From Verrucomicrobiales bacterium (GTDB taxonomy: Bacteria; Verrucomicrobiota; Verrucomicrobiia; Verrucomicrobiales; V1-33), in NCBI GenBank assembly GCA_947462995.1, contig CANHUG010000003.1, forward strand, positions 1 to 37,230: a DNA stretch of 37,230 nt. Direction: 5' to 3'. Below are positions 6,338 through 37,230 of this stretch, one piece after another. The notes under the pieces are model-generated. The model was not told where the DNA came from and did no database searches. It was given only the letters and a program-made list of their open reading frames with translations. The position numbers and the translations under genes are program-made. Position 1 is the stretch's first letter; each line of letters begins with the position of its first letter.

Positions 6338-7351
6338 TTAGGCCTGGTGTTTTTCCTGAGGAGGGGCGGGGCGGCGGCGGGATTCGGGGCGTGGGGCGAG
6401 TTGGGGTGCGGGGGTGGTGTGGTGGCCGTCGCGGACTTCGAGGAGGACGCGGGTGAAGTCTTCCATGGAGGCGACGCGGAGGGCTCCGATGCGGTTGAGG
6501 ACCTGGCTGTAGGCGTCGGCTGACTGGCCTCCGATGATGATGGGGACCTCGTCTGGGAGGAGACTGCGGAGACGGACCATCTGGTCGGGGAGGTCTGGGT
6601 CGTCGGCTGGGTAGATGATGCTGAGGGCGACGGCGCGGATGTTGTTCATGATGACGGCGCCGACGATTTCTTCTGCGGGGAGGGAGGGGCCGAGGTAGGT
6701 GACGTTCCAGCCGGATTTGCGGGCGAGGCCGGCGGCGATGGTGGCTCCCATTTCGTGGAGTTGGCCGGCAGGGGTGGTGACGAGGAGACGTGGGGCGGAT
6801 TCCGGGGTGTTGACCGGGCGGAGGGTTCTGGCGAGATAGTCTTTGATGGCGCTGGTGGCGCAATGTTCCTGGGCGGCGGTGATTTCGCCGCGTTGCCAGT
6901 CGGCTCCGAGCCGATGGAGGAGCGGGACGAGGAGACGTTCGAGCATGCCGGAGTGGCCCATGGCGAGCATGGATTCGTCGAGTGTGCGTTCGAGGGAAGG
7001 GATGTCGTAGGAGCGGATGGCTTCGATGGCGCGTTCTCCGAAGGTGGCGGCGTCGACTGGGGTGGAGAGACGGCCTTGTGGGAGGGGAGCGCCGGGGAGG
7101 TCGCCGAGGCGGTCGACCATGGAGCGGAGTTCCGGGGTGGGGAGACGGGCGATCTGGCCGATATTGAGGCCGGAGCGGGTGAGTCGGGCGAGCATGGAGA
7201 GCCGGTCGACTTCTTCGTCGGTGTAGAGGCGGCGCTGGGTGAGGCTGCGTCCGGGTTGGACGGCGGCGTAGCGTTTCTCCCACATGCGGACAAGGTGAGG
7301 GCTGAGCCCTGTGCGGAGGGCGACGGCCTTCATGTTGTGGAGAGGTTCCAT
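6338..7351 (-). CDS. MerR-family regulator with cobalamin-binding domain (CarH/LitR-like)
   Basis: Start MEPLHNMKAVALRTGLSPHLVRMWEKRY (MerR HTH, RRLYT); W-x9-EH (WQRGEITAAQEH); GQLHEMG; YLGPSLP; IIIGG. The track's 638-aa N-terminal extension is antisense of selB. Confidence 0.9.
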   Translation of the reverse strand: MEPLHNMKAVALRTGLSPHLVRMWEKRYAAVQPGRSLTQRRLYTDEEVDRLSMLARLTRSGLNIGQIARLPTPELRSMVDRLGDLPGAPLPQGRLSTPVDAATFGERAIEAIRSYDIPSLERTLDESMLAMGHSGMLERLLVPLLHRLGADWQRGEITAAQEHCATSAIKDYLARTLRPVNTPESAPRLLVTTPAGQLHEMGATIAAGLARKSGWNVTYLGPSLPAEEIVGAVIMNNIRAVALSIIYPADDPDLPDQMVRLRSLLPDEVPIIIGGQSADAYSQVLNRIGALRVASMEDFTRVLLEVRDGHHTTPAPQLAPRPESRRRPAPPQEKHQA

Positions 7352-7561
7352 GGGATTGGCAGGGGAGAACGCGGGAGATTGTGGAGGAGAATGGGTGATG
7401 GGGAGGCGGGATGTAAATATGAACCTGCCGTAGATGATTGCCGGGAACAACGACTGGGGGAGGGGAGGGGATGCTCCGAGAGCGCGGGTGGTGGGTCCGG
7501 GTTTGTGCTGATTGACGGAAAGGGGTGGAGGGATGGTGGGGCGGGGCGATAGAATGGGGGG

Positions 7562-9481: not shown

Positions 9482-9501
9482 GGGCGGTTGAGCCGCGGGG
9501 A

Positions 9502-11349
9502 TTACTTGGAGGCGCGGGGGCCGCCGAGGATTTTCTCGATGCGGACGCCGACGGCGTCTTCGAGGGCCATGAGGGCCTTATTGTAGTCGGCGTGGGCGTC
9601 GGAGCGGCCGATTTCCATTTGCTGGGCGAGGTCGGCGAACTCGTATTTCATGCGTTTCGGGCGCGTGTAGTCGTTGATGTCGACGGTACTGGCTTCGAGT
9701 TCGGCGATGGATTTGGAGGCGTCGGAGGCCTGGTCGCGGAGGGCTTTTTCGTAGCCGTCGAGTTGGGCGGAGGATTCCTTGAGGCGACGGATGGCGAGGG
9801 AGATTTCGGATTCGATGCGCTGGCGGTGGCGGCTGATCTGCTGGGCCCACGATTTGGCTTCTTCGGCGAAGGCTTTGTCGCGTTTGTTGATGCCGAGCCA
9901 GTTGAAGATGGGGAGTTCGACGGCGACGCGGACGAGGAACTGGTCCTGCTGGCCGGTGCGGCCGTCCTGCCACTGACGTTGCCAGCCGCCGTCGACGAAG
10001 GAGGCGAAGGGGACGCGGGCGGCGCGTTCGACTTTCATGCGGGCGGTGGCGATGGCCTGGCGGGCGCGGCTTTCGAGGACATCGGAGCGGTAGATCATGG
10101 CCATGTCGGTGAGCCATGCGGGGTCGAGGGCGGTGGGGTCGACGACGCGGCGCGGGGAGCCTGGGCCTGCGAGGATGCGGTCTGGTGAGGAGAGACCGCA
10201 GAGAGCGCCGAGCCAGTCGCGGGTGCGGGAGACGTCGTTCTGGAGTTCGCGGATGTCGATGAGCGCCTTGTGGATTTCGATCCGGGCGCGGGCCTTATCC
10301 ATGGCGAAGGCCGGCTGGTTGAGTTTTTCGAGTTCCGCGTGGAAGTCGCGATAGCCTTCGCGGCGTTTCTGCTGGGTGGCGAGCTGGTTTTCGAGGGCGG
10401 CGAGGTCCTGGATGAGGCCACGGACTTCGCGGACGAGCTTGTCTTCGTCGGCGAGGTACTCGGCTTCGGCGAGGGAGATTTCTGCGGCGGCGCGTTCGAA
10501 GAGGGCCTTGCGTTCGACTGGGTTGGGGAGGTTGAAGCGGAGGAGCATGCCGAACTGGTCCTGATCGGTCCAGTTTGGGGAGGCGACGGATTCGTTGGAG
10601 CGGCTGACGAGGCGGCGCTGGACGGATTCGTTCTGGCCGTCGCGGCGGGTGGCGGAGCCGAAGGTATCGGATTCGGTGCGGGTGCGGGTGCCGTTGGCGC
10701 GGTCTTCGCGGACCTCGTACGTGTTGGTGGTGATTTTGTCGATGCCTGCGCCGGGGGTGACGCGGCGTTCGATTTCGCGGTAGCGGCGGACGGAGGAAGT
10801 GCCTGAGGAGAGGTCGCTGGTGGATTCGCCGTAGCCGAGTTCGCCGAAGGAGGCGAGGGAGGAAGTGGAGTCCGAGCCGTTGAATTGCTCGGTGGTGCTG
10901 ATTTGTTCCCGGGAGGTTTCTGTGAACGGGATGCGGACCATGTCATCATCCTGCCATGCGTAGCTGAAGCGGAGTTCCGGGTTTTTCCAGACGACGGCGG
11001 CGCGGCGCTGGGCGTGGGCGGCGATGATGGAGACGCGGCGGCGTTCGAGTTCCGGGCTATTGGCGATGGCGAGGAGGATGAGGTCGTGTTCAGCGAGGGG
11101 CCCTGCGGAGGGGACCATGGCGATGAGGGCGTCTGCGGAGGGGACCTCGGTGGCGGCGGGCGCGGGAGGGGTGGGGGCGGGGGCCTTGGGTTTGGCGGCG
11201 GCTGGTTTTGGGGTGGGGGCAGCTGGCTGTGGGGCTGGCTGGGCGGGCGCCGGCTTTTTGGGATGGCGTTTGAAGATTCCGGCGGTGGAGACGGCGGTGG
11301 AGGCGAGCAGCAGCGCGGCGGCACTCGCGGTCAGAGGGAATCGGGTCAT
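9502..11349 (-). CDS. TolC/outer-membrane efflux family protein with a large insertion
   Basis: Signal peptide from MTRFPL (ATG 11349), Pro/Ala linker, ALANSPEL-like (AIANSPEL), NPELRFSY, FNLPNP, YRSDV, VELPIFNW, terminal ALMALEDAVG. Confidence 0.75.
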   Translation of the reverse strand: MTRFPLTASAAALLLASTAVSTAGIFKRHPKKPAPAQPAPQPAAPTPKPAAAKPKAPAPTPPAPAATEVPSADALIAMVPSAGPLAEHDLILLAIANSPELERRRVSIIAAHAQRRAAVVWKNPELRFSYAWQDDDMVRIPFTETSREQISTTEQFNGSDSTSSLASFGELGYGESTSDLSSGTSSVRRYREIERRVTPGAGIDKITTNTYEVREDRANGTRTRTESDTFGSATRRDGQNESVQRRLVSRSNESVASPNWTDQDQFGMLLRFNLPNPVERKALFERAAAEISLAEAEYLADEDKLVREVRGLIQDLAALENQLATQQKRREGYRDFHAELEKLNQPAFAMDKARARIEIHKALIDIRELQNDVSRTRDWLGALCGLSSPDRILAGPGSPRRVVDPTALDPAWLTDMAMIYRSDVLESRARQAIATARMKVERAARVPFASFVDGGWQRQWQDGRTGQQDQFLVRVAVELPIFNWLGINKRDKAFAEEAKSWAQQISRHRQRIESEISLAIRRLKESSAQLDGYEKALRDQASDASKSIAELEASTVDINDYTRPKRMKYEFADLAQQMEIGRSDAHADYNKALMALEDAVGVRIEKILGGPRASK

Positions 11350-24913: not shown

Positions 24914-25162
24914 GGGAAAGCTGGTGAGGAGGGGCTTTTGTAGCACAAGTGCAAGGGAATGCGGGCTGAAAAATGGGGAAGAAGGCGTGGGTGGCGTGGG
25001 CTGGGGAGGGGGGTGAGCCCCGATTCCGGGAGATTTTCCCGTTGCGTGGAGGCGGACTGTCTCGGAGGAAACTGTGCACATTTTGCGACGAACTTTGGAG
25101 AGCCGCCCCCCGCGAGCTGAGGAATCAGGGAGTTGCAAAGCTTCAAAATTTTCCGTCTTTCT

Positions 25163-25193
25163 GCTTGTGAAATTTTTCACAAGCTCATACGAT
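25163..25193 (+). promoter_or_regulatory. Rex-type operator TTGTGAA-ATTT-TTCACAA overlapping a putative promoter (TTGTGA-N17-TACGAT)
   Basis: Palindrome 25163-25184 with perfect 9-bp arms; matches the Rex consensus TTGTGAAN4TTCACAA (also fits CRP-family TGTGA-N6-TCACA). Confidence 0.75.
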
Positions 25194-25216
25194 CCGGTCC
25201 GCTTCTCCATTCACCC

Positions 25217-25873
25217 ATGGCCAATATCTTTCCTCGCTGGACGAATACGCTGCCGCTGAAGCTGCTGATTGCCCTCGGATTTGTCGGCGCAGCAGTTGCT
25301 GCAGGGGTGACATATTATGTCACCCAGGAGTATACGAACAAGGGTTACATGCCCTCGCAGCCGATACCGTTTTCGCATGAGCTGCATGCGGGTCAGGTGG
25401 GATTGGACTGTCGGTATTGTCACAGTTTCGTGGAGCAATCGGGGCATGCGAACGTGCCGTCTTCGAATACGTGCTGGAACTGTCACCAGCATGTGAAGAC
25501 GAACAGTCCACAGATTGCGAAGATCAAGGAGAGTGTGGAGACTGGGAAGCCGCTCCAGTGGGTGAAGGTGCACAAGGTGCCTGACTACGCGTATTTCAAT
25601 CACAGTGTCCATGTGAACAGCGGGGTGTCGTGTGTGAGCTGTCACGGGAAGATCAATGAGATGCCGGTGGTGTTTCAGGACCAGAGCCAGAGCATGGGCT
25701 GGTGTCTTGACTGTCACCGGGCGCCTGAGAATCACCTGAGGCCGCTGGACAAGATTACCAATCTGAACTGGACGGCGAAGGACGCTGGCCGGGAGCAGAA
25801 GGAGATGGGCGAGAAGCTCAAAGCCGCGTGGAAGATCAATCCTCCCGAGAATTGCGCCGGCTGTCACCGTTGA
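25217..25873 (+). CDS. actA: Alternative complex III pentaheme cytochrome c
   Basis: Start MANIFP; TM helix; QPIPFSHELHAG; five CxxCH (CRYCH, CWNCH, CVSCH, CLDCH, CAGCH). Confidence 0.93.
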   Translation: MANIFPRWTNTLPLKLLIALGFVGAAVAAGVTYYVTQEYTNKGYMPSQPIPFSHELHAGQVGLDCRYCHSFVEQSGHANVPSSNTCWNCHQHVKTNSPQIAKIKESVETGKPLQWVKVHKVPDYAYFNHSVHVNSGVSCVSCHGKINEMPVVFQDQSQSMGWCLDCHRAPENHLRPLDKITNLNWTAKDAGREQKEMGEKLKAAWKINPPENCAGCHR

Positions 25874-25936: not shown

Positions 25937-28900
25937 ATGAAACGCATTTGGCACCATCCTGAAGAACCTAAGACTGGCAAACGCTTCTGGCGCAGCCTCT
26001 CACAGCTTGCGAAGACCCCTGCATCCCAGGAGTGGCTCGATCGCGAGTTTCCTGCTGGTGTGGCGGAGATGAAGGATGAGGCGGACGCGGAGACGAGTCG
26101 GCGGTCATTTTTGAAGCTGATGGGGGCGAGCACGGCGATGGCCGGGATGGCGGCCTGTCGGCGGCCGGAGTTGCATCTGACGCCGTATGCGAAGTCGCCG
26201 GAGTGGGTGATTCCTGGGAAGATTCTGTTTTATGCGACGGCGATGCCGCGGTCTGGCGGGGGTGTTCCGCTGGTGGTGCACACGCATGAGGGACGGCCGA
26301 CGCATTTGCAGGGGAACAAGCTGCATCCTGACAGCAATGGGGGGCTCGACAGCCAGACGCAGGCGTCGATTCTGAATTTGTATGATCCTGAGCGTGCGAA
26401 GGAGATTCTGAATTTCGGGAAGCCGGTGAAGACCGAGGATTTTCTCGGGTTTGTTGAGAAGAAGAAGGCGGAGTGGGCTGGGAAGGAAGGCGAGGGGTTG
26501 GCGATTCTGATTGATGAGACGGTGGCTCCGACGCGTGAGCGTCTGCTGGGTGAAGTGGCGAAGAAATTCCCTAAGGCGAAGGTGTACCAGCACGAGGCAT
26601 TTGGGGCGGTGAATGCGAAGCAAGCGTACGCGGCGGCATTTGGGCCGGGGAGTGCGGCGCTGTATCATTTTGAGAAGGCGGACCGGGTGTTTGCGCTCGA
26701 CTGTGATTTTCTTGGACTGGATCGGCTTGGCAACAAGTCGGTAGGTGAGTTCATGGCGCGGCGGAAGGCGGCGAGTCCTGAGGATGGGGCGTCGATGAAT
26801 CGGCTGTATGCGGTTGAAGGACGGTACACGCTGACGGGCGGGATGGCGGATCACAGGTTGCGGGTTCCGGCGAGTCAGACTCTGAAGGTGGCTGTGGATC
26901 TGGCGAAGGCTGTGGCGACTGCGACTGGGCATGCCGGGCTTGGCACTGCGGCAGGGGCGGTGAAGGTGGCAGGAGAGTTCAAGTTCCGCGATGATTACGC
27001 GGCATGGATCAAGTGTGCTGCGGATGACTTGGTGGCAGCGAAGGGCAAGTCTGTGGTGGTGGCGGGGACGGCTCACAGTGCCGGGATGCATGCGCTGGTG
27101 GCGCTGATGAACGAGGCGCTTGGAGCGTATGGGGCGACCATTGAGGTTCGGCAGACGGGTGTGCCGATCGTGGTCGGCGGAGTTGCCGAACTGATTGCGG
27201 CGGCGACGGCGAAGCAGATTGAAACGCTGATGGTGATCGGGGAAATTGACCCGGTGTTTGAAGCGTCTGCTGAGAAACTGGGCGAGGCACTGAAGACGGT
27301 GCCGAATCTGGTGGTGCATACGTTGCGGAATCGGACTGAGACGGCGCGTGCGGCGACATGGGTGGTGCCTGCTACGCATTACCTTGAGCAGTGGGGAGAT
27401 ACCCGTGGGTATGATGGGACGTATGCGGTGGTGCAGCCGATGGTGGCACCGCTTTATGCTGCGGCGATGAGTGATCTGCAGTTGCTGCAGGCGCTGGTGA
27501 CTGGTGAATCGCTTACGGTACCGGTGGCCCCTGCGGCGGCTCCGGTTCCGGGAGCCCCTGAGGATCCGGGAGCGGCAGCGAAGGCGGTGCGTGACACGTT
27601 CGGGGTGCTTGTGCAGGGGGCGGATGACGCGAAGTGGAACAACACCCTGCGCGACGGATTTGTTGCTGGGACGGTGTATCCGGCGGCAGGACCGTTCAAT
27701 GCGTCAGCGGCGGGCCAACTGGCGGCGGCGGCGGTTGATGTGGCGATGCCTCAGGGTGAATACGAGGTGGTGTTTGCGCCTTGCGCGAAGATTCACGATG
27801 GCCGCTATGTTAACAATGGCTGGCTACAGGAAGCGCCCGATCCAATTTCGAAGGTGACTTGGGACAATGCGGCGGTGATCAGCGTCAAGACGGCGAAGGA
27901 GTTGGGCATCAATCTGTTCAACGAGGATGCCGCGGACATGCTCGAGGTGGAAGTGAACGGCGTGAAGCGCTGGTTCCCGGCGATCACCGTGCCTGGTCAT
28001 GCTGACAACAGCATCCTGCTGACAGCGGGTTACGGGCAATCGGATCCCGGGGAAGTTGGGAATGGTGCCGGGTTTGATGTGTATGCGCTGCGTTCCTCGA
28101 AGTCGCCGTATTTCGCGGTGGGAGCGAAGGTTGCGAAGTTGAAGGCTGAGGTGACGGGTGATGCGCTAGCCGGGGTGGCGGGAAGGACTGAGATTCCTGC
28201 GGTTTATCCGGTTGGGGCGACGTCGGAGCACCACAGTATGTTTGGCCGCGCGCTGGTGCGGGAAGGCACAGTGGAGGACTGGAAGGGGAATGCTGACTTT
28301 GTCCTTGAGCAGGGCACCGACGGTCACCTTCACGGGAATCGGGAAGAGAAGTTTGCTGAGAACGCCTACAGCTTCTACAAGCCAGAAGGGGCGAAGGATG
28401 CGGATGGGAACCGGATTCCGCATCTGAGCGACATGACCCACCAGTGGGGCATGGTGATTGACTTGAACAAGTGCACTGGGTGCACCTCGTGTCTGGTGGC
28501 TTGTCAGTCGGAGAACAACATTCCGATCGTTGGGAAGGATCAGGTCCGGCGTGGTCGGGAGATGCACTGGATCCGGATGGACCGGTATTTTGCGACGGAT
28601 CTGGATTCGGACGCGGCGCTCAACAATCGTCGAGTCGAGCGGAATCCGTTCGATCCACAGGACAACGAGTGGAATGAAGACGAGATGGACGATCCGGAGA
28701 TGCTGATGCAGCCGGTGGCGTGCCAGCATTGCGAATCTGCGCCATGTGAGACTGTCTGTCCGGTGAATGCGACGGTGCACAGCGAGGATGGGCTCAATGT
28801 GATGGTGTACAACCGTTGTATTGGGACCCGGTATTGCGCGAACAACTGTCCGTTCAAGGCCCGCCGATTCAACTTCTTCGATTACAACAAGCGTAACCCG

Positions 28901-29458
28901 CTGGTGACCAAGAAGATCGGCGGTCTTGAGTTCAACAACCTCTATGCTGGTCCGGCGGGCGAGCGTGTGGACACGGAGTTGAGCAAGCTTCAGAAGAATC
29001 CGAACGTATCTGTCCGGATGCGCGGGGTGATTGAGAAGTGCACTTACTGCCTGCAGCGGATTGAGAGTGCGCGGATTGAGACTCGGGCTTCGGCGCGCAA
29101 GCAGAAGTCGCGTGCGACGGGGTCGGTGGATGAGACGATGGTCATTGAGGAGAAGGACCTCATGGTGGCGACGGACAGCATCAAAACTGCGTGTCAGGAA
29201 GCATGTCCGGCCGAGGCGATTGCCTTCGGCAACCTTAAGGACGAAAAGAGCACGGTAGTGGCGTGGAAGAATAATTCCCGGAACTATGAGTTGCTTGGGT
29301 ATCTGTCTGTGAGAGCGCGGACGACCTACCTTGCACGGATCAAGAATCCGAATCCGGCCCTTGTGGCAGCGTCGCCGCGCGAGGCGCGGAAAGTCGGCCA
29401 GGGTTCCAAGACCCGACACATTCATCTCGAGCACGGCGGTTCGCACGGCTCTCACTGA
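25937..29458 (+). CDS. actB: ACIII subunit B (molybdopterin-oxidoreductase-like plus Fe-S domain fusion)
   Basis: Tat motif SRRSFLKLMG...AACRRP; CTGCTSCLVAC, CQHCESAPCETVCP, CIGTRYCANNCP, CTYC...CQEACP. Confidence 0.95.
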   Translation: MKRIWHHPEEPKTGKRFWRSLSQLAKTPASQEWLDREFPAGVAEMKDEADAETSRRSFLKLMGASTAMAGMAACRRPELHLTPYAKSPEWVIPGKILFYATAMPRSGGGVPLVVHTHEGRPTHLQGNKLHPDSNGGLDSQTQASILNLYDPERAKEILNFGKPVKTEDFLGFVEKKKAEWAGKEGEGLAILIDETVAPTRERLLGEVAKKFPKAKVYQHEAFGAVNAKQAYAAAFGPGSAALYHFEKADRVFALDCDFLGLDRLGNKSVGEFMARRKAASPEDGASMNRLYAVEGRYTLTGGMADHRLRVPASQTLKVAVDLAKAVATATGHAGLGTAAGAVKVAGEFKFRDDYAAWIKCAADDLVAAKGKSVVVAGTAHSAGMHALVALMNEALGAYGATIEVRQTGVPIVVGGVAELIAAATAKQIETLMVIGEIDPVFEASAEKLGEALKTVPNLVVHTLRNRTETARAATWVVPATHYLEQWGDTRGYDGTYAVVQPMVAPLYAAAMSDLQLLQALVTGESLTVPVAPAAAPVPGAPEDPGAAAKAVRDTFGVLVQGADDAKWNNTLRDGFVAGTVYPAAGPFNASAAGQLAAAAVDVAMPQGEYEVVFAPCAKIHDGRYVNNGWLQEAPDPISKVTWDNAAVISVKTAKELGINLFNEDAADMLEVEVNGVKRWFPAITVPGHADNSILLTAGYGQSDPGEVGNGAGFDVYALRSSKSPYFAVGAKVAKLKAEVTGDALAGVAGRTEIPAVYPVGATSEHHSMFGRALVREGTVEDWKGNADFVLEQGTDGHLHGNREEKFAENAYSFYKPEGAKDADGNRIPHLSDMTHQWGMVIDLNKCTGCTSCLVACQSENNIPIVGKDQVRRGREMHWIRMDRYFATDLDSDAALNNRRVERNPFDPQDNEWNEDEMDDPEMLMQPVACQHCESAPCETVCPVNATVHSEDGLNVMVYNRCIGTRYCANNCPFKARRFNFFDYNKRNPLVTKKIGGLEFNNLYAGPAGERVDTELSKLQKNPNVSVRMRGVIEKCTYCLQRIESARIETRASARKQKSRATGSVDETMVIEEKDLMVATDSIKTACQEACPAEAIAFGNLKDEKSTVVAWKNNSRNYELLGYLSVRARTTYLARIKNPNPALVAASPREARKVGQGSKTRHIHLEHGGSHGSH

Positions 29459-29500: not shown

Positions 29501-31003
29501 ATGGCCACCGCCGAAGCCCATGATCACCCGCCTGCAGGCGCCCCTTCCCGAGCGAAGGTGCTCCTCCGCGAGCCGCTGGTTCTCAATAACCGCAACTACA
29601 GCTGGATCACGAACAAGATCGCCAGTGTCATTGAGGAGCCTCAGCCGCTGCTCTGGTGGATCCTGATTGTTCCCAGTTTCTTCCTGACGCTGATCATGGT
29701 CGGGTGTTTCACGTACCTGATTTCGACGGGTGTCGGCGTCTGGGGACCAAATCAGCCGGCTGCGTGGGGATGGGACATTACGAACTTCGTCTTCTGGATC
29801 GGGATCGGTCACGCGGGGACGCTGATTTCGGCGATTCTGTATCTGACGCGTCAGAAGTGGCGGACCGCGGTGAACCGGTCTGCGGAAGCGATGACGATTT
29901 TCGCGGTGATGTGCGCGGGTTTGTTCCCGGCGCTGCACGTTGGGCGGGTGTGGATGGCGTGGTTTCTTGCGCCGATCCCGAACAGCAACCAGATCTGGCA
30001 GAACTTCAAGTCGCCGCTGCTGTGGGACGTTTTTGCGGTGTCCACGTACTTCACGGTGTCGGTGATTTTCTGGTTCCTTGGACTGGTGCCGGATCTTGCG
30101 ACGATGCGTGATCGGACGAAGCATCCGGTGAAGCGGACGCTGTATGCGTTGTTTGCGCTGGGTTGGAGAGGTGGGAACCGTCAGTGGCGGCACTATGAGA
30201 TTGCGTATGGGCTGCTGGCTGCGCTCTCGACCCCGCTGGTGCTTTCGGTGCACACGGTGGTTTCGTTCGACTTTGCGACGTCGGTGGTTCCGGGATGGCA
30301 CACGACGATCTTCCCTCCGTACTTTGTGGCGGGCGCGATTTTCGGCGGGTTTGCGATGGTGCTGACGCTGATGATTCCGGTTCGGAAGATCTACGGGCTG
30401 CAGGATCTTTTCACGATGAAGCACATCGACAACATGTCGAAGATCATTGTGCTGACGGGAACGATCGTCGGATACGCCTACCTGATGGAGTTGTTCATCG
30501 CGTGGTATTCGGGAAGCCTGTTTGAGTTCGATGCGTTCAAGTGGCGGATTCTGTACGGGCCGTACACGTGGGCGTACTACGGGATGTTCTTCTGCAACGT
30601 GATTGCGCCGCAGGCGTTCTGGTTCAAGAAGTGCCGCGAGAACCTGTGGGTGGTGATGGCTGTGTGCATGTGTGTGAACGCGGGGATGTGGTATGAGCGG
30701 TTCGTGATCATTGTGACGACGCTGACCCGTGATTTCCTCCCTGGAGCGTGGGACATGTACCATCCGAGCTGGGTGGAGATCTGGTCGTTCATTGGCACCT
30801 TCGGATTCTTCACGATGCTGTTCCTGCTGTTCCTGAGGTACCTGCCGGTGATTGCGATCGGGGAAGTGAAGGCGGTGCTTCCTGAGGCTGACCCACACTT
30901 CAATCCGAAGCTCAAGGAGCGGGATGCGGTGGTGCCAGCGCCGACTTACGATGGGGATTACGAGCACACTGGCGGCCGGGCGGCCGGAGGAGCTATTTCC
31001 TGA
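29501..31003 (+). CDS. actC: ACIII quinol-oxidising membrane subunit (NrfD/PsrC family)
   Basis: [61 protein letters not shown]. Confidence 0.95.
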
Positions 31004-31040: not shown

Positions 31041-31595
31041 TTGAGCACACCACTGAAACGAGTCCACGGATACCTCGCTGAATTCACCAGCGTGCAGGAC
31101 GTCTACCATGCAGCCGAGAAGGTGCGTGACGCTGGGTTTTCCAGCTGGGATGTTCACTCACCGTTTCCGATTCACGGCTTGGACGATGCGATGGGGCTTC
31201 CCCGGAGCATTCTGCCAAAGTTTGTGTTTGTCGGGGGCATTACAGGGACGATGACGGCGTTCGCCCTGCAATACTTCACGCAGGTGATTGATTATCCGAC
31301 GGTGGTGCAGGCGAAACCTGCGAACATCTATACGATCCCGGCATTCTTCCCGGTGATGTTCGAACTGACGATTCTGTTTTCGGCGTTCACTGCGCTGTTT
31401 ACGTGTCTTGTGATGATGAAGCTGCCCCGGTTGCATCATCCGCTGTTCAACTCTGCGGCGTTTGCGCGGTTTTCGGATGACCGCTTTTTCTTGTGCATAG
31501 AGGCCCGCGATCCCCGGTTTTCGCTGGAGAAGACCAAGGCGTTTCTTGCCGAGGTAGGCGGGCAAAACATCGAACTTGTGGAAGACGAAGTCTAA
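31041..31595 (+). CDS. actD: ACIII subunit D (DUF3341)
   Basis: AEF...DVHSPFPIHGLDDAMGL, PAFFPVMFELTILFSA, DRFFLCIEARDP; TTG start. Confidence 0.92.
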   Translation: MSTPLKRVHGYLAEFTSVQDVYHAAEKVRDAGFSSWDVHSPFPIHGLDDAMGLPRSILPKFVFVGGITGTMTAFALQYFTQVIDYPTVVQAKPANIYTIPAFFPVMFELTILFSAFTALFTCLVMMKLPRLHHPLFNSAAFARFSDDRFFLCIEARDPRFSLEKTKAFLAEVGGQNIELVEDEV

Positions 31596-31616: not shown

Positions 31617-32324
31617 ATGCGTTACTTTTTCCTGGCTTTGCTTCTTGCAGGAGTGCTGGTGGTCGGCACCGCGGGATTCCGCGGAGACAAGTCGACCCGC
31701 ACGCCGATTGAGATATTCAACGACATGGACCATCAGGCGAAGCTCAAGCCGCAGGCATCGAGCCGGTTCCTTGGGAATGGGGCGTCGGCGCGCAAGCCGG
31801 TGGCTGGGACGGTGCCGATGGGTCTGAGCATTCCTGTGAAGGCCGCGGCCGATGGCGGGTATGCCAACTACGGGTTTTCTCACGGGGGCGATTACTACAA
31901 CACGGGGCGCCTAGGTGATTTCTACGGTGAGGGTTATCCTGAGCAGGTGGTGGTTGACGAAGCGTTTCTGCGACTTGGGAAAGAGCGTTATGACATCAAC
32001 TGTGCGGTTTGCCATGGCCGGTCCGGCAACGGAGTGGGTGTGACGAGTAAGTTCGGGGTACCGAACATTGCAAATTTCCATACTCCACCATTCCTTGATG
32101 CCAAGGATCCCGCGTATCGGGCAAATGGGTCGATTTTCGAGACCATTTCGAAAGGCAAAGGATTGATGGGATCTTATGGAGCGAACATTCCTGTAATGGA
32201 GCGCTGGGCGATTGTGGCGTGGGTGCGCACACTTCAGATGAGCCGCAGTGCACCACTTGCCGACCCTGCTGTTAAGGCGGCGTGGGATAAACTCAACCCG
32301 GCCCCGGTTACCGCGGCGAAGTAA
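31617..32324 (+). CDS. actE: ACIII monoheme cytochrome c
   Basis: DMDHQAKLKPQ, PVAGTV, CAVCHG, GKGLMGSY, ERWAIVAWVRTLQ. Confidence 0.9.
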   Translation: MRYFFLALLLAGVLVVGTAGFRGDKSTRTPIEIFNDMDHQAKLKPQASSRFLGNGASARKPVAGTVPMGLSIPVKAAADGGYANYGFSHGGDYYNTGRLGDFYGEGYPEQVVVDEAFLRLGKERYDINCAVCHGRSGNGVGVTSKFGVPNIANFHTPPFLDAKDPAYRANGSIFETISKGKGLMGSYGANIPVMERWAIVAWVRTLQMSRSAPLADPAVKAAWDKLNPAPVTAAK

Positions 32325-32341: not shown

Positions 32342-33703
32342 ATGAGTCATCACGTTGAGGTTTCCGATCTCCCAGCCGACGGCGAGCAGCTGCAGGCGAG
32401 CAAATTTGCGCAGTGGAAGACCATCCTACTAGGGGCCGGCGGCGCTGGTCTGGCGATATCGCTCCTTCTGTTTCTCCTTGGAGGGGAGCGGGCGAATGCT
32501 TTTGCCTTCAGTTACCTGTTTGCATTTGAGGTGTTTTTCACGGTGACGGCGGGTGCGCTTTTCTGGGTTCTGCTGCACAGTGCGTCCAATTCTTCCTGGG
32601 GCGTGGCGATCCGCCGGGTGCCAGAGACCCTTGCTCAGTCGTTCGGGCTGCTGTTCCTGCTGGGACTGCCGTTGTTCACGCCGATGCTGCCGCTGGCTGC
32701 GAAGCCTGAGTGGACGAAGCACCTGTGGGAATGGATCGGGCTCCATCAGGATGTGCTGGCGCATCCATCTCCGGAAGCGCAGGGGTTGTCACTGCACGAC
32801 GCGCTGGGAGCGAATCATGATACCCTGCTGCTCTATAAGAAGTTTCCGTACCTGCACATTGGCTGGAACTTCCTACCTGGCTGGGACTACCGCTATCTGA
32901 TCATCTTTGTGTCGTTGTTCCTTGCCGCGCGCAAGATGCTGGGGCTGTCGGTTGCGCAGGATGCGACGGGCGACGTAGGTCCGACGTACAAGGCGCGCCG
33001 GTGGGCGAGCGGGTTGATGGTGGTTTTTGCTCTTTGTTCGACGTTTGCGTCGATCGACTGGGTTAAGAGCATGAACTACAAGTGGTTTTCGACGATGTTC
33101 GGTGTGAACGTTTTTGCGGGTTCGGCGCTGGCTTCGATGGCGGTGATCATTCTGGTGGTGGGTACGCTGGTGAAGACTGGGCATTTGAAGCACATTGTTT
33201 CGCCGGAGCATTTCCACCTGATGGGCAAGCTGATGTTCGCGTTCACGGTGTTCTGGGCGTACATTGCCTTCAGCCAGTTCTTCCTGATCTGGTATGCGAA
33301 CATCCCTGAGGAGACGCAGTTCTATGCGATCCGGAATACGAATGGATGGTGGTATGCGAGTCTTGGGCTGGTCTTTCTTCACTTTGCGCTGCCGTTCGTG
33401 CTGCTGCTCCGCCGGAACGCGAAGCGGGACGTCGGTTACATCATGGCCTGTGCGGCATTCATCGTTGGGGTGCACATCCTTGAGATGTACTGGATGGTGG
33501 TTCCAGAGCGGGGACGTGCGCTTTACGACTGGTCCTCTGCGACGGGTTCGGTGACGTGGATCCGGGATGTGGCTTTTGATGTGATTGCGCTGGTCACGTT
33601 TGCGGGGCTTTATGGTTTCGTGCTGCTGAAGAACCTTGCGAAACACAGTATTTATCCATGCGGTGACCCGCGGCTCGAGGAGTCGGTCAACGTGATGAAC
33701 TAA
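32342..33703 (+). CDS. actF: ACIII membrane subunit F
   Basis: About ten TM helices; DWVKSMNYKWFSTMFG, GKLMFAFTVFWAYIAFSQFFLIWYANIPEET. Confidence 0.92.
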   Translation: MSHHVEVSDLPADGEQLQASKFAQWKTILLGAGGAGLAISLLLFLLGGERANAFAFSYLFAFEVFFTVTAGALFWVLLHSASNSSWGVAIRRVPETLAQSFGLLFLLGLPLFTPMLPLAAKPEWTKHLWEWIGLHQDVLAHPSPEAQGLSLHDALGANHDTLLLYKKFPYLHIGWNFLPGWDYRYLIIFVSLFLAARKMLGLSVAQDATGDVGPTYKARRWASGLMVVFALCSTFASIDWVKSMNYKWFSTMFGVNVFAGSALASMAVIILVVGTLVKTGHLKHIVSPEHFHLMGKLMFAFTVFWAYIAFSQFFLIWYANIPEETQFYAIRNTNGWWYASLGLVFLHFALPFVLLLRRNAKRDVGYIMACAAFIVGVHILEMYWMVVPERGRALYDWSSATGSVTWIRDVAFDVIALVTFAGLYGFVLLKNLAKHSIYPCGDPRLEESVNVMN

Positions 33704-33708
33704 TTCCA

Positions 33709-34113
33709 ATGGCTGCTAATTCCATGCAAGAACATCCTGGAGATACCCTCGGCACCCGATTCCTCACGTTCTGGGGAGCGTTCGGGGCAATTGCGGCGGT
33801 GGCCGTGCTGCTGGCGGTTTACCGCTGGTGGGCGCTTCCTTCGGACGGAGCGACGAGTGATGGCGGGGCTGGGGCTGCCCGAGCGGAGATTGCGAAGGCA
33901 GTGGTGACGGAGCAGAATAAGGAGTACAGCACGGCAGCGGAGGTGGAGGCTGGAAAGACAGTGCGTCTGCCTGCGGATGCGATTGTGGGGTACGCTGCTG
34001 GAGTGCTGAAATCGCAGAAGCCCAGTCCGGGCCCCTTGAAGACACCTGAAGCGGCTGCCAAAGAAGCAGCCACGACGCACGATCCAAACCTTTCCAAGTT
34101 TGAAGGCAAGTAA
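33709..34113 (+). CDS. Single-TM hypothetical protein within the ACIII operon
   Basis: 5 nt after the actF stop; one hydrophobic helix and a short soluble tail. Confidence 0.75.
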   Translation: MAANSMQEHPGDTLGTRFLTFWGAFGAIAAVAVLLAVYRWWALPSDGATSDGGAGAARAEIAKAVVTEQNKEYSTAAEVEAGKTVRLPADAIVGYAAGVLKSQKPSPGPLKTPEAAAKEAATTHDPNLSKFEGK

Positions 34114-34146
34114 CCCGCAACCCGGAGCGATTCGAATTTTCCGCCC

Positions 34147-35637
34147 ATGAGTCAGGAAACTCCATCCCTGCCCCCCGGAGTCACCCCGGAGGATATTCTG
34201 CAGCGTGCTGCGATCGACAAGTCGACGCGCCTGCCGGTTCTGTTCTTTTTCACCAGTGGCGCGGCATGGCTGCTGGTGGCGACGTTACTTGGGTTACTTG
34301 CTTCACTGAAGTTTGTGGCCACTGGGGCGTTCAAGTATGAGGTGCTGAACCTTGCGCGGGTGCAGCCTGCGTTTGTGAACGCACTGGTTTACGGCTGGGC
34401 CTATCAGGCTGGGTTCGGGGTGATGATCTGGATCATGGCCCGGCTCTGCCGCACGGAGTTGAGGAATCCTGTGACACTGATTGTGGCGGGGCACTTCTGG
34501 AATCTCGGGGTGACGCTAGGAGTTGCGGGGATTCTGGGTGGGCAGGGTAATTTGCACATGAAGCTGCTGGAGTTTCCGGCGATGGTGTGGCCGCTGTTGC
34601 TGGTGGCTTACCTGCTGATCGTGGTCTGGCTGGTGGTGATGTATTCCGCGCGGCGTCCGGGCAGCGGGTACATCTCGCAATGGTATATCCTTGCGGCCTG
34701 TTTCACGTGGCCGTGGATGTATCTGGTGGCCAACGTGCTGCTGAATGTGTTCAAGAAGGCCGGGGTGGCTGGTCCGGTGATTGCATCGTGGTATGCGAAC
34801 GGGGTGACGTTCCTCTGGATGGTGCCGGTTGGGCTGGCGAGTGCCTACTTCATCATTCCGAAGATCACTGGGAAGGCGATTCACAGCTACAATCTGAGCA
34901 GCTTTGCTTTCTGGTCGCTTCTGGCGCTGGCTCCGTGGGCGGGTGCTCAGGAACTGATTGGTGGTCCGGTGCCTGCGTGGATCCCTGCGGTGGCGGGGAC
35001 GGCTCAGATTCTGCTGCTGATTCCGATGTTGGCGGTTTGCCTGAACCATTATCAAACGGTGCGCGGAGCGCACGATCTGGTGGCGGTGAGTCCGAGCCTT
35101 CGGTTCACGTTTTTCGGGGCGGTGGGTTATGTGTGCACGTGTGTGGCGTCCGCGGTGCTTGGGTCGATGTCATTGAGCCGGTATACCTTCCTGAGCTTTA
35201 CCCAGGATGGGGTGATGATGATGGGGACGTACATGTTCTTCACGATGGCGATGTTTGGAGCGATCTATTTTATCGTGCCGCGGATTACGGCGTGCGAGTG
35301 GGTTAGCGGGGCGCGGATCCGGCTGCATTTCTGGCTGTCGGCGTATGCGATCATCGGATTGTGTTCCCTGCTGCTGATTGCCGGGCTCTCGCATGGCTCG
35401 GCGATTGATGAGTGGGAATCGAGTTTCGAGACTGCGGTAATGTTTTCGAAGGGCTATCTGGTGGGACGGATCTTCCTTTGGATCTTCCTTGTCGCGGCGA
35501 ATGTCATCTTCATCCATCAGCTTGTCCTTATGGTCATGAACCGGGGCCGGAAGGCCGGGACGCCGACACTGATTCACCAACCTACGCCTTACGAGACGGC
35601 GGAACTTGTCATCACCACCGAAGGAGCAGAGGCATGA
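34147..35637 (+). CDS. cbb3-type oxidase subunit I (CcoN) homologue lacking the metal-ligand histidines
   Basis: About 12 TM helices with CcoN landmarks (LEFP, YISQWY, YFIIPK, IHSYNLS, FW, GAIYFIVPR, HFWL), but all His ligand positions are substituted. Confidence 0.85.
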   Translation: MSQETPSLPPGVTPEDILQRAAIDKSTRLPVLFFFTSGAAWLLVATLLGLLASLKFVATGAFKYEVLNLARVQPAFVNALVYGWAYQAGFGVMIWIMARLCRTELRNPVTLIVAGHFWNLGVTLGVAGILGGQGNLHMKLLEFPAMVWPLLLVAYLLIVVWLVVMYSARRPGSGYISQWYILAACFTWPWMYLVANVLLNVFKKAGVAGPVIASWYANGVTFLWMVPVGLASAYFIIPKITGKAIHSYNLSSFAFWSLLALAPWAGAQELIGGPVPAWIPAVAGTAQILLLIPMLAVCLNHYQTVRGAHDLVAVSPSLRFTFFGAVGYVCTCVASAVLGSMSLSRYTFLSFTQDGVMMMGTYMFFTMAMFGAIYFIVPRITACEWVSGARIRLHFWLSAYAIIGLCSLLLIAGLSHGSAIDEWESSFETAVMFSKGYLVGRIFLWIFLVAANVIFIHQLVLMVMNRGRKAGTPTLIHQPTPYETAELVITTEGAEA

Positions 35638-36398
35638 ACAGTCTGAAATCATTCATCCTGACCATGGGCGCCTGCGTCGGCGTGCCGACGATCGTCATGA
35701 CCCTTGTGCCGTATGGGACAGAGCGAGGCCGCAGCGCAGTGGCTTACCAATCGGTTCCTGATCCGGCGAATCCTGCAGCTCCTCCAAAGGATCCTGAGGA
35801 GATGAAGGGCTTGTACTACCCTGTGAATTATTCCGGGGATAGGAAGCGGGGGGAGCTGGTGTACATTCAGGAAGGATGTGCGCAATGTCACACTCAGGTG
35901 GTGCGTCCGGACTATGCTGGGATTGACCAGTTCAAGAAGGGCTCCGGGCGGGAGCAGGAGTATGCGAAGGATCAGCCGGTGGCGGTGCGTCAGACGCATC
36001 CGTGGGACTACATGCATGAGGATTTCGCGATGTTCGGGATCCGGCGGATCGGGCCTGATCTTGCGAACGCGGGCTATCGGTATCTCGACAAGGACGGGCG
36101 TCCTGATGCGGCGAAGGTGAATGCGCTGTACCAGCATTTTTATGCGCCGAGGTCATTGAGGGGATGGTCGACGAGTCCTTCGTTCAAGCACCTGTTCAAC
36201 GTGGTGAAGAAGGAGAAGCCTGAAGGCAGTTCGGATGCGCTGGTGATTCCTGCGAATCTGCCGCTGGAGGCGGGGATGGAGATCGTACCTACTGATGAGG
36301 CCAAGGCACTGGTCGAATACCTGCTCGGGCTGAAGAGAGACGCGCCGCTACCTGCGGCGATTGCCGGAACCCCGCCGCAAGTACCTGCGGCCAAGTAA
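35634..36398 (+). CDS. CcoO-like membrane-anchored monoheme cytochrome c
   Basis: ATGA overlap with the upstream gene; GELVYIQEGCAQCHTQVVRP, GIRRIGPDLANAG, ALVEYLLGLK. Confidence 0.88.
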   Translation: MNSLKSFILTMGACVGVPTIVMTLVPYGTERGRSAVAYQSVPDPANPAAPPKDPEEMKGLYYPVNYSGDRKRGELVYIQEGCAQCHTQVVRPDYAGIDQFKKGSGREQEYAKDQPVAVRQTHPWDYMHEDFAMFGIRRIGPDLANAGYRYLDKDGRPDAAKVNALYQHFYAPRSLRGWSTSPSFKHLFNVVKKEKPEGSSDALVIPANLPLEAGMEIVPTDEAKALVEYLLGLKRDAPLPAAIAGTPPQVPAAK

Positions 36399-36420
36399 AG
36401 CACCCGCGAATTTCAAGCAT

Positions 36421-37191
36421 ATGGCTTCTTCACCTGAGAACATTGACTACGCCCGGACTGCGAACGTTGCGAATATGCATGCGGCCGCGGCGCGCGAGCG
36501 AGAGGCGACGGCAGTAGGTGCCACGCCTGTTTCCCTTTGGGTCGTGGTGGCCACGGGGATTGTCACGATCATCGCTGGGGCGTATTTCGGGCAGAACACT
36601 GGTTCGGATGCCTCGATTGCCAACGTGAAGGGGTATCATTATGCGTTGCAGTACCCGGAGGGGAGCAGTGGTGGTGGGGCGGCGATGAGCGATGAAGAGC
36701 TCAGGCAGGATGCGAACTGGCTTGCCGCGGGCAAGGCGGTGTACAGTGGCGCTGGCAACTGTGTTGGGTGCCACCAGGCCAACGGCGAAGGGGTGGCCGG
36801 GCAGTTTCCACCGCTCAAGGGCTCGGATTGGGTGACTGCGAGCGACAAGCGTTTGATTGCGATTCTGCTTTACGGGATTGGAGGACAATTCAGCGTCCTT
36901 GGGAAGACTTACAATGGTCAGATGCCTGCCCAAGGGACGGCGCTGAACAATAAACAAATCGCCCAGGTTGCGTCTTACGTGCGTAATGAATGGGGTAACA
37001 AGGCGCCGTTGATCTATGACGATCAGGTGGCCGCCGTGAAGACTGAGATCGTGCGTCAGGCCTCTTGGACGCAGACGGAACTGGAAGCGGCGATTGCTGC
37101 TGATGCGGCCTGTGTGCCGTCGGAGTGGCCGGCGAAGATCGCGAAGGCCGCGGGAGGAGCGGCGGAGGCTGCACCTGCCGATAAGAAGTAA
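36421..37191 (+). CDS. Membrane-anchored class I cytochrome c
   Basis: Start MASSPE; TM helix; CVGCHQANGEG, FPPLKGSDWV, YNGQMP, IAQVASYVRNEWGN. Confidence 0.9.
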   Translation: MASSPENIDYARTANVANMHAAAAREREATAVGATPVSLWVVVATGIVTIIAGAYFGQNTGSDASIANVKGYHYALQYPEGSSGGGAAMSDEELRQDANWLAAGKAVYSGAGNCVGCHQANGEGVAGQFPPLKGSDWVTASDKRLIAILLYGIGGQFSVLGKTYNGQMPAQGTALNNKQIAQVASYVRNEWGNKAPLIYDDQVAAVKTEIVRQASWTQTELEAAIAADAACVPSEWPAKIAKAAGGAAEAAPADKK

Positions 37192-37230
37192 CCAATTTCA
37201 CCCTGAGACTGCTGCGCGTCACACCACGCA

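Follow-up and report, generated by a model that had tools for sequence, protein, structure and literature searches.

A CcoN homologue without cofactor ligands encoded in an ACIII operon of a Verrucomicrobiales bacterium

The CcoN-like protein encoded within the ACIII operon of a Verrucomicrobiales bacterium has lost all residues that hold the cofactors in CcoN. Sequence comparisons indicate that it is a pseudo-enzyme under strong purifying selection and not a decaying gene: it is homologous to an enzyme, the cofactor residues are missing, and the gene evolves under purifying selection. As the loss is complete and the selection strong, the protein is probably a non-catalytic building block. On the broader scale, it is possible, although we would rate it slightly below an even chance, that within one bacterial class the catalytic subunit of an oxidase has repeatedly and independently been turned into a cofactor-free, conserved subunit of a hard-wired assembly of ACIII, cytochrome c and aa3 oxidase.

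The window, that is, the whole analysed stretch of 37,230 nucleotides, is taken from the genome GCA_947462995.1 (contig CANHUG010000003.1, positions 1–37,230, forward strand). The gene order is actABCDEF, a small ORF, the CcoN-like gene, the CcoO-like gene, and the gene of a membrane-anchored cytochrome c. The features are as follows.

25133..25873, + strand: ActA-like multihaem cytochrome c, the first act gene; start codon uncertain
25937..29458, + strand: ActB-like protein, 1173 aa, with a TAT signal, molybdopterin-oxidoreductase-like and 4Fe-4S parts
29501..31003, + strand: ActC-like, NrfD-family membrane quinol-binding subunit (Pfam NrfD, 82.8 bits)
31041..31595, + strand: ActD (Pfam PF11821 ActD, 207 bits, cut-off 25.7)
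31617..32324, + strand: ActE-like monohaem cytochrome c (Pfam Cytochrome_CBB3, Cytochrom_C)
32342..33703, + strand: ActF-like membrane subunit, ActC paralogue (no Pfam match; named by position)
33709..34113, + strand: small ORF, 134 aa, one N-terminal hydrophobic stretch (no Pfam or NCBIfam match)
34147..35637, + strand: ligand-less CcoN homologue, putative pseudo-oxidase subunit I, 496 aa (from homology, alignment and model)
34372-34374, 34798-34800, 34930-34932, 34948-34950: former ligand codons, F76, N218, A262 and Q268, respectively
34951-34953, 35212-35214, 35218-35220: former ligand codons, E269, V356 and M358, respectively
35634..36398, + strand: CcoO-like monohaem cytochrome c, 254 aa (Pfam FixO, 42.7 bits)
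36361..37191, + strand: membrane-anchored monohaem His/Met cytochrome c (Pfam Cytochrom_C, 51.5 bits; Cytochrome_CBB3, 39 bits)
37065..37230, + strand: A-type cytochrome oxidase subunit I gene, probable 5' part, truncated at the contig end (by synteny with locus L047)

The ACIII operon is recognised by ActD (PF11821), an ActB-type Fe-S/TAT protein, two NrfD-like subunits and c-type cytochromes, all in one string. The ActA-like ORF matches Pfam Cytochrome_C7, Cytochrom_CIII and c3_2 and a QrcA-like NCBIfam model (75 bits), and the ActB-like ORF matches Pfam Fer4 families and TAT_signal together with the NCBIfam models QrcC/DsrO-like and MoCo_extend_TAT. The ActF position, between ActE and the CcoN-like gene, is occupied in 78 of the 80 labelled related loci, the act label being missing at L048 and at the contig-end locus L094. 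The ActC query yields 147 matches, approximately two ORFs per related locus. In related genomes, actD precedes the CcoN-like gene by about 2.5–3.5 kb, with both genes on one contig and one strand. The small ORF has three homologues, all in the relatives at 97–98% identity (L045–L047). The TGA stop codon of the CcoN-like gene overlaps the ATG of the CcoO-like gene in ATGA at 35634-35637, and a Shine-Dalgarno-like GAAGGAG is situated inside the last codons of the former. Contigs from four RNA libraries span the CcoN-like gene and its borders (e.g. 32726-37230 in X5), with DNA carry-over possible; they carry neither level nor strand and are no proof of transcription. The likely true start of the anchored cytochrome c is an ATG near 36421.

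The ORF of the CcoN-like protein is full-length and uninterrupted. The protein matches Pfam COX1 (PF00115) with 98.3 bits over residues 31–424, above the gathering cut-off of 34.8, and the NCBIfam ccoN model TIGR00780 with 95.7 and 95.4 bits, far under the cut-off of 583. The same genome carries a true cbb3 oxidase (CcoNO) elsewhere; its ccoN, on contig C4, scores 630 bits with TIGR00780. HMMER matches to the solved CcoN chains 9g6b_A (E 6e-19) and 3mk7_A (E 1e-18) extend over residues 40–418 and pair rlrPlhtN of CcoN with rvqPafvN of the CcoN-like protein, wYGHN with wYANG, yiWAGphh with apWAGaqe, and GhvhaG with GvmmmG. The MAFFT alignment of 281 homologues places F76, N218, A262, Q268, E269, V356 and M358 in the seven ligand columns. 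In 36 other rows the same columns hold H, H, Y, H, H, H and H, so the alignment is able to recover the ligands where they are present. Given this and the concordance of HMMER and MAFFT, misalignment as the source of the missing histidines is ruled out.

In the numbering of P. stutzeri CcoN, we take the axial histidines of the low-spin heme b to be H60 and H347, the proximal histidine of the high-spin heme b3 to be H345, the CuB histidines to be H207, H257 and H258, and the cross-linked tyrosine of helix VII to be Y251. In the CcoN-like protein, the low-spin heme b sites are occupied by F76 and M358 and the heme b3 site by V356, the CuB histidines are replaced by N218, Q268 and E269, and the tyrosine by A262. 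As judged from the alignments, canonical binding of the low-spin heme, the high-spin heme and CuB is no longer possible and, since all seven sites are replaced, the protein should not work as an O2 or NO reductase of the conventional kind. The preliminary description had claimed as much from an alignment made by eye, together with an intact 496-aa homologue and translational coupling to the CcoO-like gene. These claims are borne out: the loss of the histidines and the tyrosine is reproduced by both programs at seven sites of seven, the intact ORF is recognised as a CcoN homologue by HMMER and by structure comparison, and the coupling agrees with the ATGA overlap.

The AF2 model of the CcoN-like protein has pLDDT 85.7 and pTM 0.89. 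Its best Foldseek match is CcoN 3mk7_A (TM 0.84/0.89), and the top seven matches are all CcoN chains with TM 0.83–0.89, whereas the ba3 and NOR chains have 0.64–0.83. Hence the predicted structure is the 12-helix heme-copper oxidase fold, the nearest structures being those of the C-family. Several replacements specific to the clade of the window protein are bulky (Gly to Trp at 445, Thr to Trp at 148, Leu to Tyr at 82, Ile to Tyr at 400, and Ala to His at 116), and these residues would fit filled cofactor pockets.

The dN/dS ratio (NG86) of the CcoN-like gene is 0.032–0.040 against L045, L046 and L047 (97–98% identical) at dS of 0.35–0.44, and 0.11 against L048; canonical pairs yield 0.010–0.12. 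Neutral decay, for which the preliminary description had proposed a dN/dS check among orthologues, is thus contradicted. None of the 115 close homologues of at least 430 aa (P0001–P0121) has the canonical ligand set, and the mean column identity among them (alignment A1) is 59%. Homologues are full-length down to 45% identity among the best 120 of 824 matches, and a full-length homologous reading frame is seen at all 80 loci examined. One in-frame stop each was flagged in three canonical genomes (G213, G180 and G252).

Within the clade of the window protein, conservation is 29–64% at five of the seven former sites and 97–100% at four histidines, H116, H301, H394 and H458. The VMMM run, suggested earlier as a hint of a metal or redox sensor, is confined to the window and its nearest kin: a homologue at 85% identity reads VFLT, and V356 and M358 are conserved in only 40–41% of the 115 close homologues. 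The methionine cluster is thus ruled out as a conserved metal site, and gives no basis for a metal or redox sensor; this part of the preliminary interpretation, which overall is partly supported, is therefore unsupported.

The CcoO-like protein scores 41 bits with the NCBIfam ccoO model, under the cut-off of 200. The CxxCH motif is present in all 80 CcoO-like ORFs and in all 73 third cytochromes found. The CcoO-like protein of the window retains CxxCH and RxGPDL, but the axial methionine of S-x-M-P is replaced by serine (alignment A2; HMMER against 3mk7_B and 9g6b_B). The replacement extends over the subclade, with histidine in L048 and cysteine in L049 and L052, which makes a simple relay through the CcoO-like heme doubtful here. 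Of 73 homologues of the third, anchored cytochrome, 72 retain the methionine of GQMPA, and, judging by sequence, only this protein looks like an ordinary carrier in the subclade of the window. The third gene has a single CxxCH, unlike CcoP of the cbb3 oxidases, which is dihaem; canonical ACIII-linked operons are similar in this respect.

The predicted complex of the CcoN-like and CcoO-like proteins has a score of 0.86, the best of three controls having 0.00, with at least 97% contact agreement between the runs and pLDDT of at least 77 for the CcoO-like partner. Among solved complexes, 116 of 157 reach the mark for this score, as do 2 of 215 mismatched pairs, counts that are only rough here, since the author's own alignments were used. 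The prediction supports binding of the two proteins. At that, CcoN–CcoO complexes have already been solved, so the pass may reflect model memory and shows likeness rather than binding by this particular copy. The predicted CcoO-contact residues are not more conserved than the others but less (mean 0.63 versus 0.71; one-sided Mann-Whitney p 0.998).

The survey of the locus covered 75 loci from 75 related genomes: 41 with the canonical ACIII-linked CcoN (L053, L054, L056–L084, L086–L095), 30 ligand-less, and 4 outgroup loci. In related families, most orthologues at the same operon position are canonical. The sequence evidence indicates that the CcoN-like protein descends from a genuine ACIII-linked cbb3-type oxidase, still canonical in most of these families. 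The tree of the loci requires five changes of the ligand state, and the starred branches force at least three. A single ancient loss, with all ligand-less rows in one clade, is rejected by the AU test (delta lnL 108, p 0.0018). Hence the ligands appear to have been lost several times independently, about five. In L051 and L055, basal in the clade of the window, both axial histidines of heme b are retained and the other five sites (CuB, tyrosine, heme b3) are gone; L050 and L052 retain the first histidine alone. In this lineage, loss of the binuclear centre thus seems to have preceded that of the low-spin heme.

The ligand-less clades cover many genera, and their rows are situated on long branches, those of the canonical proteins on short ones. 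A redundant canonical cbb3 oxidase does not explain the loss: a separate ccoN above the cut-off is present in 20 of 31 ligand-less genomes versus 27 of 41 genomes with the canonical operon (plus one split copy), that is, there is no association.

The preliminary description had also considered a scaffold for an ACIII–oxidase supercomplex, with any oxidase encoded to the right of the window as a possible partner, and what was found fits this idea. The final 418 bases of the contig overlap the end of contig C56 of the same genome at 98.3% identity, and C56 carries COX1. In L047, COX1 (400 bits) begins at the matching place and is followed by COX3, COX4, COX2, CtaA, CtaB and SCO1 (Pfam). The overlap with C56 and the synteny with L047 place an A-type cox operon next to the module of the window, on its right. 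Such an operon is also seen downstream in the ligand-less loci L046–L050, L052, L096 and L120–L123, with genes named by Pfam for L047. In L048, the module stands at the head of the cox operon with no ACIII upstream, and L085 has only a CoxII-like ORF downstream. No cox operon was found within about 10 kb downstream in L051, L097 and L098–L116; this includes all 18 ligand-less loci of the f7 clade (L098–L102, L104–L116). On the other hand, the canonical loci L053 and L054 do carry a cox operon downstream. Hence the ligand loss is not tied to an adjacent aa3 oxidase, a relation that holds only partly across the loci.

We consider it about an even bet that the cofactor-free pseudo-oxidase forms the structural centre of a cytochrome c module linking ACIII to the aa3 oxidase. 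The CcoN-like protein would be a 12-helix membrane platform that carries the anchored cytochrome c together with the CcoO-like subunit, and the platform would hold this module to ACIII, to the aa3 oxidase, or to both. Electrons would pass from menaquinol to ACIII, then to one or more c-type hemes, and then to the real oxidase encoded next door. One tight gene string would produce ACIII, the pseudo-oxidase, both cytochromes, and the aa3-type oxidase with its assembly genes. We infer the physical complex, the electron path and the absence of any cofactor from these data. The repeated loss of all cofactors from a protein that was retained in every case suggests that the subunit has a further, non-catalytic role in respiration through ACIII.

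Several observations count against this structural-core reading. The dN/dS ratio as low as in working oxidases and the highly conserved membrane core seem to exceed what a passive anchor would need, the contact residues are less conserved, the CcoO-like axial methionine is lost, and the ligand loss is not tied to aa3. The four conserved histidines, in turn, count against the absence of any cofactor.

Alternatively, the emptied fold may have an active membrane job, either as a proton or ion path or as a module coupled by conformational change within a supercomplex that contains ACIII, loosely comparable to the antiporter-like subunits of complex I. At its boldest, the broader reading would have the fold gain an active role in the assembly, for instance in conducting protons or ions or in coupling. 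The very strong constraint in the window lineage agrees with this, as does the better conservation of the helices compared to the predicted subunit interface; further, the predicted helices contain polar residues that the clade conserves (Q87, H116, N196, Q268 at 97%, N452 and H458), several of them new relative to the canonical proteins, and other ligand-less clades have polar or charged residues at the former ligand sites (e.g. the patterns QQGRHQQ and AHSSRRW). However, the independent clades do not agree in what occupies the former sites, so there is no common new site, and the ligand-less pairs of the f7 clade have dN/dS of 0.18–0.42, which looks like relaxed constraint. We regard the active job as unlikely, although it is the strongest competitor of the structural core.

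Binding of a heme or metal via other residues (H116, H458, or Met/Gln/Glu), with new redox chemistry or sensing, seems improbable. H116 and H458, conserved at 97–98% in the clade and absent from the canonical orthologues, would be the natural candidates, and there is an apparent swap in helix 12, where the canonical His452/Asn458 became N452/H458; low-spin hemes with His/Met or His/Lys ligands are reported for other HCO families in 10.1101/2021.10.15.464467. At the same time, H116 and H458 fall outside the canonical positions conserved at 95% or more, the sole set tabulated for the other ligand-less clades, and H301 is absent from 0 of 18 rows in f7, 0 of 4 in g23 and 0 of 4 other ligand-less rows. 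The low conservation of five former sites and of the methionine run also speaks against this option. It is still harder to believe that the gene is a relic becoming a pseudogene, open only by chance or due to operon polarity. The long branches of the ligand-less rows and the raised dN/dS in some ligand-less pairs (up to 0.42) point this way, but the low ratio for the window gene at substantial dS, the full-length homologues and reading frames, and the spread over many genera do not, and polarity would not constrain the amino-acid sequence.

Compared to CcoN of the cbb3 oxidases (3mk7/5djq, 9g6b, 8smr, 6xkw), the CcoN-like protein has the same predicted 12-helix fold with many structural residues in common and a monohaem CcoO-like subunit encoded next to it, with a predicted interface between the two; it differs in the replacement of all six histidine ligands and the helix VII tyrosine and in its TIGR00780 score. 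The canonical ACIII-linked CcoN of related Verrucomicrobiae families forms one subfamily with TIGR00780 scores of 208–258 bits. It occupies the same operon slot (actB–F, CcoN, CcoO, cytochrome c), is 36–44% identical to the window protein, and shares with it the PTL motif after helix 12. Unlike the window protein, it retains all seven sites, evolves slower, and mostly has no cox operon downstream.

An ACIII–aa3 supercomplex of Flavobacterium johnsoniae was reportedly described by Sun et al. in 2018, and we know of no CcoN-like or CcoO-like proteins reported in it. Unlike F. johnsoniae, a three-gene module derived from the C-family stands between the act and cox genes here. The likeness is that an A-type oxidase adjoins the ACIII genes; the idea in that system is direct electron transfer without a soluble carrier (PMC8498564). 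Losses of cofactor sites with the fold retained are known in the superfamily (10.1101/2021.10.15.464467): one active-site histidine is replaced in gNOR, heme c is missing from the fused NorC-like part of qNOR, and CuA from subunit II of E. coli bo3 or gNOR. In those enzymes, which remain catalytic, the loss is limited to a single ligand or affects a secondary subunit, whereas here the catalytic subunit has no ligand at all.

A search of a literature library found no earlier description of a ligand-less CcoN. Repeated loss with retention of the protein provides a natural experiment, and the architecture of the ACIII–oxidase assembly in this phylum is a well-defined target for purification and cryo-EM. 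In genome-based oxygen physiology, the presence of ccoN is taken as a sign of high-affinity, microaerobic respiration, and a large and varied group of proteins annotated as cbb3 subunit I cannot be oxidases. The mislabelling anticipated in the preliminary description does occur: close homologues are labelled 'cbb3-type cytochrome c oxidase subunit I' in the sources. A test of the seven columns is a simple means to correct such annotations. The ligand-less form accounts for 30 of 71 ACIII-linked loci and for 122 of 126 full-length representatives of 50%-identity clusters examined. Reviews and primary papers list a cbb3-type oxidase for verrucomicrobial methanotrophs; if our reading is true, the oxidase so counted for them and for many other Verrucomicrobiota is no oxidase. 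Among genomes of the same class, four from methanotrophs carry no C-family homologue other than the ligand-less form.

The CcoN-like gene (34147–35637, plus strand) comprises 496 uninterrupted codons, as the preliminary description had it, and its stop codon shares the sequence ATGA with the start codon of the following gene, bearing out the proposed translational coupling to the CcoO-like gene. The ORF passes the Pfam COX1 profile at 98 bits; its score with the NCBIfam ccoN profile (TIGR00780) is 96 bits versus the cut-off of 583. In a phmmer search of all solved chains, the protein matches CcoN subunits only (E 6e-19 to 1e-15), and the positions aligned with the six histidine ligands and the cross-linked tyrosine of Pseudomonas stutzeri CcoN are occupied by F, N, A, Q, E, V and M. 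The MAFFT alignment of 281 homologues features HHYHHHH at the same seven columns in 36 rows, hence the missing ligands cannot be ascribed to an alignment artefact: comparison with validated CcoN does not restore the histidines, and the claimed loss extends to all seven sites. The AlphaFold2 model, built with 28 homologues as input, is confident (pLDDT 85.7, pTM 0.89). Its best superposition is with CcoN 3mk7_A (TM 0.84/0.89, rmsd 2.4 Å, 20% identity), the ba3 oxidases and NO reductases being clearly worse matches. Judged by sequence and predicted structure, the protein is a CcoN fold without the canonical ligands, and we rate it as a pseudo-enzyme member of the C-family. As foreseen, close homologues carry the public name "cbb3-type cytochrome c oxidase subunit I".

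The surrounding genes are as follows.

Upstream of the CcoN-like gene: ActA-like multihaem cytochrome
Upstream: ActB-like TAT/Fe-S protein
Upstream: ActC, NrfD family
Upstream: ActD (PF11821, 207 bits)
Upstream: ActE, cytochrome c
Upstream: ActF-like membrane protein
33709–34113: 134-aa ORF between the ActF-like and CcoN-like genes, with one N-terminal hydrophobic stretch
35634–36398, plus strand: CcoO-like monohaem protein, downstream of the CcoN-like gene
Downstream: N-terminally anchored monohaem cytochrome c

The 134-aa ORF has no family match, and no homologue of it was seen outside the three relatives whose CcoN-like proteins are 97–98% identical. The window contig stops at 37230. In a metagenome-assembled locus with 97% identity (L047) the string continues with A-type COX1, COX3, COX4, COX2, CtaA, CtaB and SCO1. 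Moreover, the last 418 bases of the window (36813–37230) coincide, at 98.3% identity, with the end of another contig of the same genome (C56, L001:3129–3546), which bears the A-type COX1. Thus the oxidase whose presence to the right of the window had been left as a possibility is an A-type one, and the CcoN-like gene, by overlap and synteny, is placed between the ACIII and aa3 oxidase genes. That the overlap is 98.3% and not 100% suggests that strain heterogeneity in the assembly broke the operon here.

In its final codons (35610–35637) the CcoN-like gene has GAAGGAG, a Shine-Dalgarno-like sequence for the overlapping downstream start, and similar E/G-rich tails end many homologues (3' ends in L045–L124). 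Hence the conserved C-terminus may partly reflect translational coupling and not protein function. Canonical and ligand-less forms alike have a PTL motif following helix 12.

Compared with the three closest relatives (97–98% protein identity), the gene yields dS of 0.35–0.44 and dN/dS of 0.032–0.040; the ratio to L048, a relative of 61% identity, is 0.11, and canonical CcoN pairs range from 0.010 to 0.12. In a word-index search, 824 homologues were found among 8000 scored candidates, and among the 120 matches listed (identity down to 45%) the ligand set is absent from all 115 homologues of at least 430 aa. For the window gene, neutral decay, the outcome that would have undermined the preliminary description, is thus excluded, and selection is strong.

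The window protein and ActD were used to search 301 genomes of the phylum, of which 92 matched the former (E 1e-10 or better). About 18 kb were fetched around 75 hits, and the ORFs were labelled in jackhmmer searches for which the proteins of the window served as queries. The ACIII-linked loci share the order actB–F, CcoN-like, CcoO-like, cytochrome c, with the exception of one locus at a contig end. CcoN is canonical in 41 of the 75 loci and ligand-less, with many different residue patterns, in 30; the remaining four, from another class, lack an act operon and form the canonical outgroup. In a quick IQ-TREE analysis (79 rows, 455 columns, the seven site columns taken out) the tree requires five state changes, at least three of them forced by starred branches, and the ligand-less pair L097 and L103 sits deep within a canonical clade. 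A single clade of all 34 ligand-less rows is 108 log-likelihood units worse and is rejected by the AU test (p-AU 0.0018). While the long branches and the quick tree make the exact number of losses uncertain, this phylogeny indicates that canonical ACIII-linked oxidases gave rise to the ligand-less form on several occasions.

Within the clade that holds the window, the ligands seem to have been lost in steps. L051 and L055, which are basal, retain both axial histidines of heme b, the CuB, tyrosine and heme b3 residues all being gone; L050 and L052 keep the first histidine alone, and the window none. Two metagenomic cluster representatives show intermediate states, P0127 (HHAQYHH), with three heme histidines and the first CuB histidine kept and the tyrosine and two CuB histidines lost, and P0123 (HHGQKLT). 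Both fit a loss of the binuclear centre before the hemes. When the cluster representatives at 50% identity were searched exhaustively, 1471 matched at E ≤0.001, and 269 of these reached E ≤1e-30. Among the best 150 hits, 4 of 126 full-length representatives are canonical, which is not a frequency, because the ranking is by likeness to a ligand-less query and rapidly evolving forms are divided among more clusters.

The window's genome has a bona fide ccoN as well (G000:C4:33919–35328, locus L002; TIGR00780 630 bits). Its 884-aa frame suggests a CcoN–CcoO fusion, and 61 of the 301 searched genomes have similar frames of 716–919 aa. The TIGR00780 scores form three tiers: fusion-type true cbb3 (593–680 bits), canonical ACIII-linked CcoN (208–258) and ligand-less ACIII-linked CcoN (65–159). 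Ligand loss does not correlate with the presence of a separate true cbb3 (20/31 ligand-less versus 27/41 canonical genomes). All five tested ligand-less genomes without true ccoN have a strong COX1 elsewhere, hence a real oxidase is available in those five.

Exactly one CxxCH is present in all 80 CcoO-like ORFs and in all 73 third cytochromes found, the methionine of the latter being kept in 72. In place of the CcoO-like S-x-M-P methionine (window codons ~178–182), the window has Ser, L048 has His, and both L049 and L052 have Cys; the other 28 aligned rows keep the methionine. Thus, though the CcoO-like protein of the window retains CxxCH, the heme environment is also altered in its subclade, probably changing heme ligation and potential. 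The predicted CcoN-like/CcoO-like complex, part of the multimer check proposed in the preliminary description, passed (score 0.86, best of three controls 0.00), with at least 97% of contacts common to the runs and partner pLDDT of at least 77. Of 157 solved complexes 116 reached the pass mark, as did 2 of 215 mismatched pairs; these counts are only approximate here, as our own alignments were used. Since solved CcoN–CcoO structures exist, the pass shows likeness and may stem from the predictor having been trained on them. The predicted contact residues are no more conserved than the others.

We suggest that a cytochrome c module would stay bound to ACIII and/or the aa3 oxidase and that the CcoN-like protein would be kept as the membrane core of this module. 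The tie to aa3 in this clade is favoured by the cox operon following the module in the window, L046–L050 and L052, and by L048, where the module heads the cox operon with no act genes upstream. However, all 18 ligand-less f7-clade loci lack a cox operon beside the module, which, like the lack of correlation with true cbb3 and a constraint equal to that of working enzymes, counts against so simple a picture. An active role of the emptied fold, as an ion or proton path or in coupling, seems rather unlikely to us; a new cofactor site built on H116 and H458, histidines kept in the window's clade and new relative to the canonical orthologues, is improbable. In L048, the place of the ACIII genes upstream is taken by a divergent histidine kinase (Y_Y_Y, HisKA_3), a LuxR-type response regulator and htpG, encoded at 6966–9708 (minus strand) and possible regulators of the module-plus-cox operon.

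Linkage of ACIII and cbb3 genes has been published for verrucomicrobial methanotrophs and Opitutaceae (PMC8498564, PMC6688271), and a survey preprint describes the active-site histidines as wholly conserved across heme-copper oxidase families bar gNOR, where one is replaced (10.1101/2021.10.15.464467). The literature check for degenerate ccoN paralogues, made in the full text of accessible papers, found no report of CcoN without ligands. Four methanotroph genomes of the same class (genus g23; L120–L123 in G111, G093, G279 and G132) have 3–4 pmoA genes each. Their ACIII-adjacent CcoN-like protein scores 28 bits with solved CcoN, lacks five of the six histidines (pattern SESSHFV, e.g. L122:7929–9392) and is the sole C-family homologue; no TIGR00780 match above 28.5 bits is found anywhere in the four genomes; CoxI-III-IV-II, an A-type operon, directly follows. 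The methanotroph papers, PMC8498564 and PMC6688271 among them, list a cbb3-type oxidase beside ACIII with no caveat in the accessible text. If g23 represents those methanotrophs, this listed enzyme is probably no oxidase.

Twenty runs labelled as RNA, of riverine and freshwater origin, contain 38–46% of the sampled words. Contigs from four of them cover the gene and bridge both borders, giving neither level nor strand, with DNA carry-over possible.

The 22 small genomes of genus g2, from the same order, have no CcoN-like match; 12 have a weak ActD-family match (34–68 bits), some within frames of ~400 aa, perhaps representing a remnant or else a diverged protein that contains ActD. A second ActD match away from the CcoN-linked operon is seen at G108:C7:241138–241638 and G060:C1:3970724–3971221 (genome:contig:positions), and on G258:C8, G270:C45, G012:C71 and G252:C1. 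Some of these lie within frames of 590–610 aa, suggesting that there is another ACIII-like cluster or that ActD exists in a fused form.
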